In this document: positions 8,573 through 42,791 of the stretch, in pieces | Position numbering within the stretch: the first letter of the stretch is position 1 | Layout: each line of letters starts with the position of its first letter | Sequence record: PZ445554.1 | DNA from: a phage | Length of the DNA: 64,000 nucleotides | Strand: one strand, 5' to 3' | Translations under genes and position numbers: made by a program | Notes under the pieces: model-generated | Databases searched by the model: none | Told to the model about the DNA's origin: nothing | Seen by the model: only the letters and a program-made list of their open reading frames with translations

Positions 8573-9773
8573 ATTTTGTAATAATGTCAAACTGTTCTTT
8601 AAAGCAGAAGCTTGAATCTTGATGCTGATACAAAAATTCATATGCTTTTTCTCGCTCACGGTCATAAAGAGCTCGGTCAGATGACAGTTCTTTAATACGT
8701 TCAAATGTTGATTCCATGTCATTTTCATCAAACCAAATGATACCGCTATCATGCGAGGTCAAAGGAGTATTATCAACACGGAATTTTAAATTTTCGCCAG
8801 TAGATTTCCAAAATACCGGAATTGTTCCACATGCACCAAGCTCGAGATGAGTATATTCTAAAGAACGTTGTAGATATTTTTTATCCAACTTACTCAACTG
8901 ATAACCAAAACCGGATTTACTCATGCGTTCAAGCATTTCGCTATTTACATAACGGTCAAGAATTTGCGTTGGCAAATTAGGAGCAATTTTAATTTGGTCT
9001 ACTTGATGAAGACGATAATACTCGTATGGAATTCCTTTTTCTTTAATAGGAATGAACGCTGGAGAACGTTCCAGACCTTCCATAATAGTACTTAGTCCTG
9101 CAGGTTTAAGATGTTTTTCGTGAAAATCAAACATCTGATAAAAACCTTTCCATGTAGTCGTACGACCAATCCAACGATTGATATTCATGTTAATTTCAGA
9201 AACATCTTTCCAGTAGGTTGACCGAACCTTCGCAATATCCATAGGAGGCTGAAAGTTATATACTGTCGGCGCTTCTTCAATATCATCAAATAAAGAAACT
9301 GTTTCAGGATACCACTCTTTCATCAGAACTTTATTAAAATCACCATTATCAGAATGACTAAAAATAACATCAGCTCGACGAACAGTTTCTTCTAATCCCA
9401 AATTTCGGCGCAAAGAAAGAGAAGAGTGGTCATGTTGATAAACTACAACACGAACCGAAGGTTTAATGTTATCAATAATTTTTTTATAGTTATTAATAGT
9501 GTCTTCTTCAACTGAAGTAGCAGGAACTGAATTGATAATTAGAATATCACAATCATTTACCAGCTTAAGTGTTTTATCGTATTCTTTTGCCAATAAAACC
9601 GGAATTGAAAATGATTTATAATCATGTGCACAGTTACGAGTAAATGATTTATCTTTAGCATAAACCAAAGTTACTTCATGACCATTTTTAATAAACCAAT
9701 CACGTTGCTCAAGAGAAAATTTAGTTACACCACAACCTTCAAGACCCCGAGCCATAAAAATACATACTTTCAT
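8571..9773 (-). CDS. a-gt: DNA alpha-glucosyltransferase
   Basis: 400 aa; sequence recognised as T4 alpha-glucosyltransferase with several substitutions. Confidence 0.85.
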   Translation of the reverse strand: MKVCIFMARGLEGCGVTKFSLEQRDWFIKNGHEVTLVYAKDKSFTRNCAHDYKSFSIPVLLAKEYDKTLKLVNDCDILIINSVPATSVEEDTINNYKKIIDNIKPSVRVVVYQHDHSSLSLRRNLGLEETVRRADVIFSHSDNGDFNKVLMKEWYPETVSLFDDIEEAPTVYNFQPPMDIAKVRSTYWKDVSEINMNINRWIGRTTTWKGFYQMFDFHEKHLKPAGLSTIMEGLERSPAFIPIKEKGIPYEYYRLHQVDQIKIAPNLPTQILDRYVNSEMLERMSKSGFGYQLSKLDKKYLQRSLEYTHLELGACGTIPVFWKSTGENLKFRVDNTPLTSHDSGIIWFDENDMESTFERIKELSSDRALYDREREKAYEFLYQHQDSSFCFKEQFDIITK

Positions 9774-33158: not shown

Positions 33159-33620
33159 TCATTGAGTTTTAATTACTGCTTTAGAAGCCTTTCCTGGTAA
33201 ACGACGACTGTTAATAATTGCCATCCTACATTGAAGTGACGGGTCTTTGAACTTCTCGTTAGGTTTACAAACTGTAAATCCAAGCCAAAGATTTCCATCT
33301 GTGATTTCTAAACGTCCAGGACGATATTCAACCCCATCAATAAAATCCTCGTCAATGTCAGGACGCGGAGGCATACTCAGGAATTCATTAACTTCTAAAA
33401 CATGGTCTTTTATTTTATGGAATAATTCAAAAACATATGTCTCATCAATCTCCCGCTGAATTGCGCGATCAAGAAGATGCTGAGAATATTTTAGATGAAA
33501 CGATGAGACCCTTGCTGCTTTTGATGCCTCACGAATCTCATTGTTAATTTGACGAAACTCCGACTCAAAGTGACGACGAAGCTTATTTCGACGGATAAAA
33601 ACTTCTGTATTGATAGTCAT
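33159..33620 (-). CDS. regB: Endoribonuclease RegB
   Basis: 153 aa; recognised as T4 RegB; early promoter directly upstream. Confidence 0.85.
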   Translation of the reverse strand: MTINTEVFIRRNKLRRHFESEFRQINNEIREASKAARVSSFHLKYSQHLLDRAIQREIDETYVFELFHKIKDHVLEVNEFLSMPPRPDIDEDFIDGVEYRPGRLEITDGNLWLGFTVCKPNEKFKDPSLQCRMAIINSRRLPGKASKAVIKTQ

Positions 33621-34438: not shown

Positions 34439-34800
34439 TACAAACTCTCGGTAAAGGTACGAGCGATAACATCGCGCTGCTGTTCCGGAGTCAGAGAGTT
34501 AAAGCGAACTGCATAACCGGATACACGGATGGTCAGCTGCGGATATTTTTCCGGATGCTTAACTGCATCTTCCAGAGTTTCGCGACGCAGAACGTTAACG
34601 TTCAGGTGTTGACCACCTTCAATTTTAACTGTAGGCTGTTGCTCAATTTCAATTTCACGGGCATGCAAACCGTAGAAAATTTCTGGGTCTACAAAAGAGT
34701 CCTCTTTAAAGGTTTTGGAGACAATAATTCGTGCTTGAATACCATCTTCAAAATAAATAGTACCTTTATGTGTGCCTTCAAGAATTTGATATGCTTTCAT
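34438..34800 (-). CDS. Autonomous glycyl radical cofactor (GrcA/YfiD-like)
   Basis: C-terminal [25 protein letters not shown] matches the glycyl-radical motif of GrcA/PflB C-terminus. Confidence 0.8.
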
Positions 34801-34807
34801 ATAAACC

Positions 34808-35188
34808 TCAATTAGAAAATAAATTTATCCAAGATTGTTCTTTAATTAAAAATGGCTCAGAATCATATGCCATTAAACTTTGCGTAATTAATCCTTTAAA
34901 AGGTCCATCAATAAATTCCATGGTAAAATATGGAATTTTATTCATTAGCCGTGCATTAGGAGCAGTGCACAAAACTCTGCATCCTTTGAATACGCCTTTT
35001 TGTAATTTGTATTGCTTAGGATAAAATTCACTTAAAATGTTATTTTTTGCCAAAATTTCAAAATGATTCACCAATTTATTTTTAATAGTTTTTGGCGAAA
35101 AATAAAGATATTCGAAAAGCTGAGTGTCTGTCATCATTGCATTCCAATCACAAAAAATTGAGGACGAGTAATACCACCAATGCAACAT
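34808..35188 (-). CDS. Hypothetical protein
   Basis: 126 aa ORF; start uncertain. Confidence 0.4.
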
Positions 35189-35673
35189 TTACTATTACAG
35201 CAGTAGTGTACAGTGTCAATATGGACACTATAAATCTTATCCATATCAGGAGATTTGACAGGCTCATCAATTATATACAAAATTCGCGAAAGCGATAAAC
35301 CTCTGAACTTGCTTCCTTTATTACCAATAAAACTGCGCACAGAATCAGTAAATAAACGAAAACGTATATCATCATTAGAATAACGCGAAAATTCCTTTTT
35401 AATGTTATTTGCAGAAATTTTAGCGTAAGCTGAAGTATTAGAAAGAACAATAACTGTTCCGCCATCATACAGCCAATTAGCAGCAAAGTTAGTCACAGCA
35501 ATTGATTTACCAGATTGACGTCCACCGTCTAGTCGAAGTGTGCAGTACTGTTTAAGTAATTCTTCAAATGGCGGGATATATTCGTTTTTACAAATTTCTT
35601 CTACTCTAGCATCAGAATGGTGTGTAAAAGCATTCATCAGGGATAGATAAGGACCAGTTAAAAATGTTCTCAT
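35134..35673 (-). CDS. Small P-loop NTPase-like protein
   Basis: 179 aa; GGRQSGKS (Walker A-like) and ILYIIDEP (Walker B-like). Confidence 0.5.
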   Translation of the reverse strand: MRTFLTGPYLSLMNAFTHHSDARVEEICKNEYIPPFEELLKQYCTLRLDGGRQSGKSIAVTNFAANWLYDGGTVIVLSNTSAYAKISANNIKKEFSRYSNDDIRFRLFTDSVRSFIGNKGSKFRGLSLSRILYIIDEPVKSPDMDKIYSVHIDTVHYCCNSKCCIGGITRPQFFVIGMQ

Positions 35674-35813
35674 TTCTTCTCTCTAAGTTTGGGCCATTCC
35701 ATGGCGCATGAATTGTCCATTTCTGTATTTACCCATTACCGCGCTTTGGCTCGACCTTATCACAGGTTGGCGGGAATCCCTCATAGAATCATGAGGTCCA
35801 GGTTGTTCCCATA

Positions 35814-36287
35814 TTATTTGAACGATTTAACGTACTGAATAGAACCTTTACTATTCACGAAAGCGATTTTACCATTTTTATTATACATGGTAGCAGTACG
35901 TTGATAGCCATAAGTTTGTTTACCAGATTGATAACCAACTAATGCAAAATTATCTTCACCCATTTTATTCTGTTTAGCGCGAATGCGTTCATGACCATGT
36001 GCCATAAGAACCTTAGCATCACCAGTTGCAATGGATCGACGAGTTTTTTCATCTTCAACTGTATTAACAAAGTCGTCAAATGAATCAAATTTAGCATGAG
36101 ATTTATTATACAATTTTCCATCTACTGCATAATTATATCCCTGTACATCCATCTCAACTTCTGTACCATCATCCAATACAGCAGTGATTTTTTGACCTTT
36201 TTTAAATTTCAAAAGATCAGTAAAAGATTCAGCAATAATTTGAGAATTAATAGCTGCTTCAGTAATAAATTCTTGATATGTTTTCAT
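35814..36287 (-). CDS. Internal protein (IP-like) with capsid targeting sequence
   Basis: N-terminus MKTYQEFITEA is the T4 internal-protein targeting leader cleaved by the prohead protease; AAGGAAA RBS. Confidence 0.65.
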   Translation of the reverse strand: MKTYQEFITEAAINSQIIAESFTDLLKFKKGQKITAVLDDGTEVEMDVQGYNYAVDGKLYNKSHAKFDSFDDFVNTVEDEKTRRSIATGDAKVLMAHGHERIRAKQNKMGEDNFALVGYQSGKQTYGYQRTATMYNKNGKIAFVNSKGSIQYVKSFK

Positions 36288-36296
36288 ATGTTTCCT

Positions 36297-36713
36297 TTAA
36301 ATGTAAATATTTTTGCCGTAATACTTGTACCAGTGTGGCTTCATTAAAATTTTTTCATCAAGTCGTTGTTGACTCAATTTAATAGCTGATTTGCATGGAT
36401 TATAATCATTTTTCCATTCTGCTGGAATATCGCTGATGTCAGGAACTTCAGTATCTTTTATACTGAACCCGCGTTTTAAGCATTCCGTTATAATGTCTAA
36501 TTGACGCTTTCGCAAAAATTCTAACTTATCGTAAAAGAAAGTAACATGACCAGAACCTAAAATAAATTTAGAAGATATTTTAAAATCTTTAACGCGCTTA
36601 CCGTTTGCCACATGCTTACGAACTATACCAAAAACACGTGGCAATTCACGGTATTCTGCTATTAAATGTTGATCAGCAAGTTCAGATACTAAAGTCAAAT
36701 TAATACGAGTCAT
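36297..36713 (-). CDS. denV: Endonuclease V (pyrimidine dimer DNA glycosylase)
   Basis: 138 aa; [17 protein letters not shown] recognised as T4 DenV with substitutions. Confidence 0.88.
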
Positions 36714-36738
36714 TTTATCCCTCCAAGTAACTGTGAAT

Positions 36739-36768
36739 ATACTATCACAATTCTAGGAGAAAGTAAAC
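36739..36768 (-). promoter_or_regulatory. Early promoter upstream of denV
   Basis: GTTTAC-N18-TAGTAT. Confidence 0.55.
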
Positions 36769-36772
36769 AACT

Positions 36773-37303
<531 letters not shown>

Positions 37304-37759
37304 TTAAAAGAGGTTGTTCATTATTCGGTAAAGTGAAGGACCCATCACATATTGCCACTGAGTACGAGGAATAAGAGCAAAAGCATCCATCTCTGGAATC
37401 ATAACGCCATCTTTATTTTCAAAATAAGACTCACAATAGCAATTTCTGAACATCTCATGCTCTACTGGAATCGTATAATAAAATAACTGTAAGTCTTTAT
37501 TACTAGAATATTTAAATACACCTAGGTCTTCTAGAAGGTCTGGATTATAATTGCTAAAACCAGTCTCTTCTAAGCATTCTCTTCGTGCTGCATCTAGTGC
37601 GCTTAAATCAGAATTTTCTACGCGGCCCTTTGGAATATCCCAACGATGTGCCATCATTCCAGGCTTACGAGAACCAGTAACCCGACCCATAAATAAATCT
37701 TTATCTTCTGTCATAAAGATAATACCAGCTGATAATGTTTTCATTTTAATTTCCTGCAT
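37304..37759 (-). CDS. nudE: Nudix hydrolase
   Basis: 151 aa; Nudix box GRVENSDLSALDAARRECLEETGF. Confidence 0.8.
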   Translation of the reverse strand: MQEIKMKTLSAGIIFMTEDKDLFMGRVTGSRKPGMMAHRWDIPKGRVENSDLSALDAARRECLEETGFSNYNPDLLEDLGVFKYSSNKDLQLFYYTIPVEHEMFRNCYCESYFENKDGVMIPEMDAFALIPRTQWQYVMGPSLYRIMNNLF

Positions 37760-41836: not shown

Positions 41837-41913
41837 TGGCCAGGGTGAAAGGATTCTAACCTTTAACCTGCGGTTTAGAGGACCGCTACTCTATACAATT
41901 GAGTTACACCCCG
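41837..41913 (-). tRNA. tRNA-Arg (anticodon UCU)
   Basis: Clean cloverleaf on minus strand, anticodon loop CCUCUAA, encoded CCA. Confidence 0.8.
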
Positions 41914-42039
41914 TAATTAGTTCACAGCAATACCTACTCCAACAATCAAGATGTCTTCACACGAAATTAAGAGAAGAGTGATCAGTTCAACCCCTATAAT
42001 CGCGTCAAGTAGATATTAATGTGACAACTGTCACAAGTT

Positions 42040-42114
42040 TGGCGGACGTGATAGGATTCGAACCTATAACCAATCGCTTAACAGGCGATCGCTCTGCCAT
42101 TGAGCTACACATCC
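42040..42114 (-). tRNA. tRNA-Asn (anticodon GUU)
   Basis: Cloverleaf GGAUGUG...GUCCGCCA, anticodon loop CUGUUAA, T-loop UUCGAAU. Confidence 0.75.
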
Positions 42115-42118
42115 AAAT

Positions 42119-42205
42119 TGGTGGGGAGTGGTGGAGTCGAACCACCCGAGTCGCAATGACAATGAATTTACAGTCCACACCGCTACCTCTACGGGATAAC
42201 TCCCC
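42119..42205 (-). tRNA. tRNA-Tyr (anticodon GUA), long variable arm
   Basis: Type II tRNA, anticodon loop CUGUAAA, overall layout like bacterial tRNA-Tyr. Confidence 0.7.
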
Positions 42206-42218
42206 CTAATTCGTAATT

Positions 42219-42293
42219 TGGTGACCCTGGGTGGAATTGAACCACCATCTGGCGATTATGAGTCGCTTGCTTGAACCTTCCAGCTACAGGGCC
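42219..42293 (-). tRNA. tRNA with anticodon CAU (Ile2 or Met)
   Basis: Acceptor GGCCCUG/CAGGGUC, anticodon loop CUCAUAA, encoded CCA. Confidence 0.6.
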
Positions 42294-42294
42294 T

Positions 42295-42370
42295 TGGTGC
42301 TGATTGACGGAATCGAACCGCCGACGTCCTCATTACAAGTGAGGTGCTCTACCTACTGAGCTAAATCAGC
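42295..42370 (-). tRNA. tRNA-Thr (anticodon UGU)
   Basis: Acceptor GCUGAUU/AAUCAGC, anticodon loop CUUGUAA. Confidence 0.8.
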
Positions 42371-42375
42371 AAAAC

Positions 42376-42465
42376 TGGCGGAGGCGATAGGATTTGAACC
42401 TATGAGTCGCCGGAGCGACTGCCGGTTTTCAAGACCGGTGCATTAAACCACTCTGCCACGCCTCC
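42376..42465 (-). tRNA. tRNA-Ser (anticodon UGA), long variable arm
   Basis: Acceptor GGAGGCG/CGCCUCC, anticodon loop CUUGAAA, 17-nt variable arm. Confidence 0.8.
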
Positions 42466-42467
42466 AG

Positions 42468-42541
42468 TCTCCGTGGCAGGATTTGAACCTACGACATTCT
42501 GCTCCCAAAGCAGACGCTCTACCAAACTGAGCTACACGGAG
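42468..42541 (-). tRNA. tRNA-Pro (anticodon UGG), CCA not encoded
   Basis: Acceptor CUCCGUG/CACGGAG, anticodon loop UUUGGGA. Confidence 0.75.
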
Positions 42542-42551
42542 TAAATTAAAT

Positions 42552-42625
<74 letters not shown>

Positions 42626-42630
42626 AAATT

Positions 42631-42717
42631 TGGTGCGAGAAGTGGGACTCGAACCCACAAGGAAATCATTCCGCAGCATTTTAAGTGCTGTGCCTTTACC
42701 AATTTGACCATTCTCGC
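42631..42717 (-). tRNA. tRNA-Leu (anticodon UAA), long variable arm
   Basis: Acceptor GCGAGAA/UUCUCGC, anticodon loop CUUAAAA. Confidence 0.8.
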
Positions 42718-42718
42718 G

Positions 42719-42791
42719 CTGGGAATAAAGGACTCGAACCTTTGCATCCTGGAATCAAAATCCAGTGCCTTACCAACTTGGCTAATTCCCA
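42719..42791 (-). tRNA. tRNA-Gln (anticodon UUG), CCA not encoded
   Basis: Acceptor UGGGAAU/AUUCCCA, anticodon loop UUUUGAU; abuts tRNA-Leu. Confidence 0.75.

Follow-up and report, generated by a model that had tools for sequence, protein, structure and literature searches.

A conserved minus-strand RNA upstream of vs.8 in a Tequatrovirus most likely belongs to an undescribed phage RNA family

Comparison between genomes indicates that the spacer separating an internal-protein (IP) gene from the vs.8 homolog of a T4-like phage (Tequatrovirus) encodes a structured RNA under strong selection. The spacer (140 nt, positions 35674-35813, minus strand) lies in a 64,000-nt stretch of phage DNA (sequence record PZ445554.1), which is referred to here as the window; comparison loci are cited by their L numbers. 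The RNA most likely belongs to an undescribed phage RNA family. A preliminary description of the window had taken the spacer for a local feature of a variable locus, yet no other element there is so conserved. It has relatives in unrelated phages, and when its structure and conservation were checked as that description had proposed, the pairing of its junction and of its outer stem (P1) proved to be kept by compensatory changes across phage groups.

In its T4-like form the conserved RNA is about 120 nt long (35691-35810, minus strand), its limits being set by the start and end of conservation; it opens 3 nt past the stop codon of the IP gene, and 17 nt lie between its end and the start codon of vs.8. 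In T4 coordinates it covers about 64,790-64,915. All of its parts are read on the minus strand. Stem P1 (GGGAA, 35806-35810, with UUCCC, 35772-35776) encloses the hairpin P2 (CCUCAU-GAUUCU-AUGAGG, 35779-35796), the P1/P2 unit spanning 35772-35810. The three-way-junction core of 47 nt (35728-35774) consists of PJ (GCCA, 35768-35771, paired with U[G]GGU, 35731-35735, in which the bracketed G is bulged), H1 (ACCU[GUGAUA]AGGU, 35754-35767), H2 (C[GA]GC[CAAAGC]GCG, 35740-35753) and the junction strand GUAA (35736-35739). In its general form, the model pairs the linker NCCN with N[G]GGN in PJ, and gives H1 as ACCU[GUAAUA]AGGU and H2 as C[GA]GC[CNAAGY]GCG, with almost invariant unpaired junction nucleotides. 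T4-likes alone carry a 3′ arm (35691-35730) of near-invariant columns with two conserved GGA motifs, of which the second lies in the hairpin loop of GCCAU-GGA-AUGGC. The GCC/GGC hairpin of this arm is a prediction of RNAalifold; its pairs never vary, so that it is neither supported nor refuted. In L050, an IMG/VR contig of about 172.7 kb, an insertion of ~35 nt within the arm leaves the junction and the terminal GGAAUGGCCC in place, which suggests that the arm tolerates expansion. The purine-rich ribosome-binding region of vs.8 (AAACUUAGAGAGAAGAA before the AUG, 35674-35690) fills the rest of the spacer on that side.

The model came from an unguided RNAalifold run on 29 T4-like copies, in which the last linker nucleotide was paired with the nucleotide after GGUAA (13 AU, 7 UA, 5 UG and 4 CG, with none broken); this pair led to the combination of P1/P2 with a three-way junction. 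To evaluate the junction, 46 distinct sequences representing all phage groups were aligned with MAFFT, and 500 shuffles and slid partners served as controls. The pairing of the junction held in 95.5% of cells compared with 83.1% in shuffles, and its covariation score was 0.313 compared with 0.083 in shuffles (0/500 as good in both cases) and at most 0.063 with the partners slid. PJ is strongly supported, its three inner pairs being kept in 46/46 sequences with 3-5 pair types each. Double changes were seen in H1 (A-U to G-C in the second copy of Edwardsiella phage PEi20) and in H2 (C-G to U-A in L041, L057 and L065).

Compensatory change extends to P1. Among T4-like types all 5 of its pairs vary on both sides and 94% of cells are paired, the variants being GGGAA/UUCCC, GGGAG/CUCCC, AAAGG/CCUUU, AAAGC/GCUUU and AAAGA/UCUUU; other phage groups have GGGG/CCCC, GGAAC/GUUCC, GAAUGU/ACAUUC, UGAGUG/CACUCA and GUGUAU/AUACAC. 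P2 changes to CCUUAU/AUAAGG in L032 and has a G-U wobble in phiD1. The trimming point of the P1 alignment was chosen by hand, and since the per-sequence shuffle test was not significant (median p = 0.17), the support for P1 is that of covariation across lineages. The nested hairpins noticed at first reading, GGGAA...[CCUCAU-loop-AUGAGG]...UUCCC, are nonetheless real and backed by this comparison. G-U wobbles in the junction (6 UG and 11 GU) would be A-C mismatches on the opposite strand, and the structure therefore belongs to the minus-strand RNA, the strand of the genes. A covariance model of the junction has exactly one match in the window (35728-35774, minus strand; 65.2 bits, rough E-value 1e-18), the next hit scoring 9.4 bits; family members score 46-72 bits and chance matches with the search pattern at most 25 bits.

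Other pairings were tried and set aside. If the 3′ arm is closed by a "P3" helix (UGGGU/GCCCA), that helix is in competition with PJ, and the commonest non-Tequatrovirus type breaks it with an A.C; a 5-bp register of H2 with an A.G mismatch (alt1) pairs 74.6% of cells and fails in divergent copies. A long-range ACC:GGU pairing with a mini-hairpin, proposed by RNAalifold, has no compensatory support, and its no-bulge register of PJ breaks 6-12 sequences. A pseudoknot joining the H1 loop (UGUAA) to UUACA/UACAG after PJ was not supported, its mean best complementarity being 4.43 compared with 4.07 in shuffles, although L079 shows one suggestive change. The RNA is present twice in tandem upstream of vs.8 in PEi20 (L039, ~1142-1395) and in L058 (~8960-9260). 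In the second copy the H2 hairpin is remodelled and H1 closes with a G-C pair, a pattern suggesting that the copies diverged after duplication.

The conservation of the spacer could in principle be that of protein. It aligns with the 5′ 120 nt of the 219-aa vs.8 open reading frame (ORF) annotated in T4, and T4 keeps that 219-codon frame open, so the spacer might be a decayed or alternative N-terminal Vs.8 coding sequence, or else hold a separate 33-codon ORF (35683-35784). We regard this as extremely improbable and already largely refuted. Relative to the T4 extension, the window lacks 9 bp and carries a TAG in frame, its frame reading MRDSRQ...MAQT, a stop codon and then REEMRTF; phiD1 has one extra T, and teqhal has 6-nt and 1-nt deletions and an ATG changed to ATA. 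T4-like copies differ by indels of 1, 4-5, 12 and 18 nt, some of them not divisible by three. A frame that runs from an ATG through the whole element is kept in T4 and in L003, where it is artefactual (the real start is lost), and is closed in the other 37 of the 39 T4-like copies; the ATG itself lies in a hairpin loop that other genera delete or replace. The PHROG 1488 profile (177 positions) and 16 aligned homologs have no such extension and begin at the short 179-aa form, M[RK]xFLT, a start that the 1986 T4 entry X04567 gave as "alternative ORF 64.0(4)". Conservation is also far above that of the adjoining real coding sequence: the 47-nt core is ~91% identical (43/47) between T4-like genera whose Vs.8 proteins are 37-44% identical to that of the window. 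In the T4 RefSeq, vs.8 (219 aa; L004, NC_000866, 3254-3913) is probably too long by 40 codons, which overlap the RNA.

The element also occurs beyond the T4-likes. A BLAST search with 171 nt matched 1,038 phage records, and the central ~45 nt also matched rV5-like Vequintavirus genomes and "Pseudomonas phage PsgM04F" at 86-95% identity, mostly with no annotated feature beneath. The PsgM04F copy (L006, ~1379-1550) lies within a tRNA cluster, in the same orientation as the tRNAs on either side of it, tRNA-Thr and tRNA-Gly. Compared with the related Phapecoctavirus SKA64 (L038, ~1203), it amounts to an insertion of ~170 nt, beginning ~7 nt after tRNA-Thr and flanked by ACATAAC/ACACAAC, and this presence and absence among related Phapecoctavirus genomes hints at mobility. 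The region around it is built from repeated long hairpin units. In rV5-like phages the copies lie ~450-600 nt upstream of the tRNA cluster, with a promoter-like sequence (TTGACA-N17-GATAAAAT) between the RNA and the next ORF. Pattern scans of IMG/VR and metagenomes found copies in 46-47 kb contigs, in phage Pylas (70 kb), in a 360-kb contig and in several short contigs, all of them in or adjoining a same-strand tRNA array. Cultured carriers found by BLAST of the variants are the Klebsiella phages Pylas (an N4-like member of the Schitoviridae) and KpCHEMY26 and the ~150-kb phages SF1-1, DE16 and phiWec188/190. Copies in tRNA clusters lie entirely within a long outer stem (GUUGUGAC/GUCACAAC); these copies and the rV5-like ones have no 3′ arm. 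No copy was found in 185,579 representative bacterial and archaeal genomes or in 5,426 complete E. coli genomes, and on these counts a host origin of the sequence was rejected. No Vs.8 homologs were found near the non-T4 copies. The RNA is thus independent of Vs.8 outside the T4-likes and is found only in phages.

Seventeen pattern matches (L040, L042, L045-L047, L053, L055, L056, L059, L061, L064, L066, L067, L069, L070, L073 and L077) were discarded as chance; all those scored with the covariance model had 25 bits or less, and most had neither the architecture nor a tRNA context. Some features of the carrier loci were recorded in passing. In rV5-like phages (L005, 2709-2807; L007, 2582-2680; L060, 1714-1812) ARAGORN reports a tRNA of 99 nt whose anticodon has four bases (atcc), and in Pylas a "tRNA-Pyl" with the amber-reading anticodon cta (L080, 9535-9610; L087, 520-595). 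A motif with two small hairpins, CCCUUAGAGGGCUUGAUAGUGC, precedes the RNA in rV5-like phages (L005, ~1445-1490; L068, ~40-85), and in a second rV5-like group a similar one lies on the far side of the RNA as well (L068, ~255-300). L007 (MG065672, "Campylobacter phage A141", UNVERIFIED) and similar records are classed as Vequintavirus and are near-identical around the RNA to rV5-like phages of E. coli, and their Campylobacter host label looks doubtful.

The element was not found described in the literature on vs.8, T4 small RNAs or phage RNA motifs, and it may be an anonymous entry among the 8,495 IMG/VR structured-RNA candidates listed by a 2023 survey (PMC10690425). None of the 4,227 models of Rfam 15 overlaps it at E ≤ 10 in the window and the tRNA-cluster copies, or matches the rV5-like, PsgM04F and distant T4-like copies at E ≤ 1; the families thus compared include tRNA, tmRNA, riboswitches, ribozymes, ROOL and GOLLD. 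Of the 10 tRNAs that ARAGORN places in the window, none is at 35.7 kb, and in other loci none overlaps the element.

Several known systems share part of its character. The stable RNAs C and D of T4 (species 1 and 2) are encoded in the T4 tRNA cluster; like the present RNA outside the T4-likes, they are small structured phage RNAs that are co-located, and presumably co-processed, with tRNAs. The comparison with RNAs C and D is one of location rather than sequence; the junction model has no match near the window's tRNA cluster (41.8-42.8 kb), and in T4-likes the RNA lies ~6 kb from that cluster, in the IP/vs.8 locus. An unannotated gap of 126 nt (41914-42039, minus strand) between tRNA-Asn and tRNA-Arg of the 10-tRNA cluster (41837-42791) may be a candidate for one of T4's stable RNAs, and the junction covariance model has no match in it. 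Purine-class three-way-junction riboswitches also have a compact junction in which conservation is highest at the unpaired nucleotides of junction and loops, but the element matches no Rfam riboswitch, many of its copies have no downstream ORF, and no expression platform was identified. A likeness of the core of the second PEi20 copy (AAUAAGGCNAGUCCG) to the nexus of Cas9 tracrRNA was judged coincidental; to our knowledge, the hosts of these phages lack type II CRISPR. A role as a CsrA sponge through the GGA motifs of the 3′ arm, which recall the consensus from systematic evolution of ligands by exponential enrichment (SELEX), was set aside, the rV5-like and tRNA-cluster copies having no arm. 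ROOL and GOLLD RNAs often lie near tRNA genes. They are likewise phage- or prophage-borne structured RNAs conserved by covariation, but they are several times larger and homo-oligomeric (PMC12286853), whereas this RNA is 120-170 nt long and occurs in virulent enterobacterial phages. The hepatitis delta virus (HDV)-like theta ribozymes are small structured RNAs beside phage tRNA genes (PMC10879173), as is the PsgM04F copy. They form a nested double pseudoknot, whereas here a three-way junction is joined to a hairpin, no ribozyme model matches, and the T4-like copies do not lie beside tRNAs.

What the RNA does is a separate question, and on balance we lean towards a stable RNA that acts in trans, as a decoy, sponge or cofactor for a host tRNA/translation factor or a defence factor. 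In this phage it would be made within a transcript running from e through denV and the IP gene to vs.8. Because no promoter or terminator is predicted in or adjoining the spacer, the RNA is probably part of that e-to-vs.8 transcript; the scan used a simple consensus and found no promoter-like or terminator-like site in 35674-35813, T4 middle and late promoters being outside its reach. This agrees with the preliminary description, which had seen no promoter cassette there. Over 34700-37400 the scan gave 10 promoter-like sites against 12.5 expected from shuffles and 1 terminator-like site against 1.2, and an intrinsic terminator was rejected, as no GC-rich hairpin with a U run is present on the minus strand of that interval. 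In other phages the RNA would be co-transcribed with tRNAs and then cut out alongside them, as the long outer stem of the tRNA-cluster forms suggests. Its P1/P2 hairpin is stacked against the compact junction of PJ, H1 and H2, and it would persist as a small stable RNA. The unpaired junction nucleotides are invariant in four unrelated phage groups with nothing but their host family in common, which suggests a common binding partner. The junction surface would bind a partner shared by all these phages of Enterobacteriaceae; the likeliest candidates are a protein or RNA from the host's tRNA/translation machinery, or else a host defence sensor. In T4-likes the 3′ arm with its two GGA motifs, 14-22 nt from the vs.8 start, may in addition tie the RNA to vs.8 translation.

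Several observations weigh against this interpretation, both as to structure and as to role. The folding energy of the spacer is no lower than that of shuffled sequences (z = -0.15 on the minus strand and -0.03 on the plus strand), so the support for its structure comes from comparison between genomes and not from thermodynamics. H1 and H2 are almost invariant and have few compensatory changes behind them, and the ACC:GGU alternative is equally compatible with most sequences. Copies were found with patterns and BLAST searches seeded on the conserved core, which inflates its apparent invariance, and part of the near-identity of the core among unrelated phages could come from recent horizontal transfer and not from constraint. 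As for function, we purely infer both the stability of the RNA and its action in trans, and the fixed spacing to vs.8 together with a ~1:1 co-occurrence with vs.8 in about 1,000 T4-like genomes fits a role in cis at least as well.

Such a role would make the element a vs.8 leader, a 5′ untranslated operator that binds a protein or a ligand in the manner of a riboswitch and controls translation or stability of the vs.8-vs.7 message. In T4-likes the element is almost always directly upstream of vs.8, its end lying 14-22 nt from the vs.8 ATG in 38 of 39 copies (the exception, L003, has lost the real start codon); the record counts of the RNA (1,038) and of Vs.8 (1,010, with 30/30 sampled being T4-like) are close, nearly all T4-like in both cases; and the compact junction with its invariant unpaired nucleotides resembles an aptamer. 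Against these stand the four T4-like loci L017, L044, L048 and L051, in which an IP gene sits after the RNA and separates it from vs.8, and all the other phage groups. There the next same-strand feature is tRNA-Gly in PsgM04F, other copies lie between tRNA genes, the promoter-like sequence of rV5-like phages parts the RNA from the next ORF, and Vs.8 homologs are absent from the neighbourhood. We consider a cis role unlikely; it is nevertheless a serious rival, because the 3′ arm ends so close to the vs.8 ATG, and it could coexist with a role in trans.

A more specific version of action in trans, which we hold to be rather unlikely, is that the RNA is a factor for counter-defence or host takeover that many unrelated virulent phages infecting Enterobacteriaceae carry, its junction serving as a stand-alone aptamer or decoy for a component of host immunity. 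Candidate targets would be a nuclease or sensor directed at tRNA or other RNA, or else a nucleotide second messenger, and in T4-likes the RNA would then be placed inside the anti-restriction hotspot formed by the IP genes.

The position of the element also suits a function at the end of a message. In every T4-like arrangement it begins 0-4 nt past the stop codon of the gene before it, there is no intrinsic terminator, and the outer stem around the tRNA-cluster copies is like that of an RNase III-type substrate, so the element might protect the IP/denV message at its 3′ end, act as a signal for RNase processing or anti-termination, or serve as a processing spacer in tRNA clusters. This seems to us quite unlikely: a protective hairpin needs no ~30 invariant unpaired nucleotides across four unrelated phage groups, and the gene upstream varies (denV, various IPs, tRNAs or nothing).

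Finally, the constraint could be on DNA, with the element acting as a recombination anchor or a small mobile cassette that shuffles IP genes and with the RNA structure incidental. It marks, as a constant feature, the border of the variable IP cassettes, its core is near-identical in unrelated phages, it is duplicated in tandem in PEi20 and L058, and the PsgM04F insertion relative to SKA64 is flanked by ACATAAC/ACACAAC. Compensatory changes and strand-specific G-U pairs indicate selection on RNA, however, and this reading is improbable. The mobile cassettes of T4-type phages consist of a stem-loop followed by an early sigma-70-type promoter, whereas no promoter-like site was found in or adjoining the spacer. 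Mobility and an RNA function are not mutually exclusive.

The locus around the RNA is otherwise ordinary. The minus-strand order is nudE (37304-37759), e (36773-37267), denV (endonuclease V, 36297-36713), the IP gene (35814-36287), the spacer, the 179-aa vs.8 homolog (35134-35673), the vs.7 homolog (34808-35137; PHROG 2049, E = 4e-54; same coordinates in T4 and phiD1), vs.6 (GrcA-like) and regB, the real regB of the window being at 33159-33620. The spacer had been described as GC-richer than its surroundings, and it is (45.7% for 35680-35819 compared with roughly 25-39% in neighbouring windows), but the vs.6 gene reaches 46.4%, so GC content alone is not distinctive. T4 has the order e-ipIII-ipII-denV-vs.8. 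Here a gap of 59 nt (36714-36772) separates e from denV where T4 has ipIII and ipII, and denV is the conserved flank upstream of the variable IP cassette, which has shifted to the other side of denV relative to T4. The preliminary description was right that the IP gene does not lie between denV and e; its placement "upstream of denV" applies to plus-strand coordinates, since in the direction of transcription the IP gene comes after denV. The vs.8 stop and the vs.7 start overlap as ATGA (35134-35137), which suggests translational coupling, and a longer vs.7 frame in the mechanical ORF list (126 aa, 34808-35188) is probably unused. In several records (L002, phage JK1; L003, teqhal; slur04) the label "Endoribonuclease RegB" has spread onto unrelated neighbouring ORFs, including the Vs.8 and Vs.7 homologs, vs.1 and vs.3.

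The 157-aa IP is of the Ip4 type. It matches Pfam PF24183 (DUF7412) over its full length (E = 6e-96) and PHROG 3155, "internal virion protein" (E = 6e-102), and its counterpart in phage JK1 is annotated "Ip4". Its capsid-targeting leader, MKTYQEFITEA, is present as first described, M1-F7 and E10 being invariant across six IPs; the leader MKTYQEFI(A/T)E ends at the Glu cut by the prohead protease. Leader and full-length family match together place it among the T-even internal proteins. The leader is the sole part in common with T4 IPII and IPIII, the mature part being unrelated. In the T4-like loci fetched for comparison, 0-3 IP genes of 87-198 codons stand around denV in many combinations, which bears out the variability ascribed to the locus; a recent paper counts about ten Ip families and speaks of "this phage genomic hotspot" (PMC12373910). 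The same work, from 2025, reports that T4 Ip1, Ip2 and Ip3 each block a distinct GmrSD type IV restriction enzyme, in keeping with the view that internal proteins include anti-restriction factors; it covers Ip1-3 and does not mention Ip4 (PMC12373910). The window IP shares with Ip1-Ip3 the N-terminal capsid-targeting leader and the hotspot, but it belongs to the Ip4/DUF7412 family, whereas Ip1-3 are the GmrSD inhibitors (PMC12373910). By analogy with Ip1-3, the injected Ip4-type protein is probably an anti-restriction factor, an ordinary gene for this locus.

The product of the 179-aa ORF, described earlier as a small P-loop protein, fits that description well. Residues 3-179 align with positions 2-177 of the 177 in PHROG 1488 (E = 3.9e-79), and over its 179 aa it is 98.9% identical to T4 Vs.8. 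It has a Walker A motif (GGRQSGKS) and a Walker B-like motif (ILYIIDEP); DGGRQSGK[ST], IIDEP, R113 and R124 are invariant in 16 homologs, down to 40% identity. AlphaFold predicts a single RecA-like alpha/beta domain of five strands alternating with helices (predicted local distance difference test, pLDDT, 82; predicted template-modelling score, pTM, 0.83), whose nearest solved folds are, weakly (template-modelling scores, TM, of 0.37-0.53), the cores of helicases, terminase/packaging ATPases and F1 ATPase. Motifs and predicted fold are those of a stand-alone P-loop NTPase of the RecA-like/ASCE group. Vs.8 shares with phage large terminases and SF1-SF2 helicases the Walker A sequence RQSGK[ST] of T4-type terminases, a Walker B motif and the predicted RecA-like alpha/beta fold, but it has neither a nuclease nor a second RecA domain. 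A large terminase subunit was rejected, with Pfam Terminase_6N scoring 12.7 bits against a cut-off of 22 and the protein being a single domain of 179 aa. Sequence searches of the PDB, Pfam and PADLOC gave nothing above threshold. On sequence and model, Vs.8 is a genuine small P-loop ATPase, with its activity predicted.

The IP and Vs.8 genes are therefore known and ordinary, and the RNA family is the new part of this locus; the novelty applies to the family and not to its mechanism. T4 is a reference phage in which this region has been annotated since 1986, and the RNA was probably overlooked because in the T4 annotation it falls within a protein gene. Recognition of the RNA would correct how vs.8 is modelled in T4 and its derivatives, and the element offers a fixed landmark for tracing the exchange of anti-restriction IP cassettes. 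Should the counter-defence reading be true, the RNA would stand for a new class of non-coding phage RNAs that an annotated T4 ORF had concealed for decades. If borne out, this RNA, more conserved than any neighbouring protein, would be a testable new player in phage-host RNA biology.

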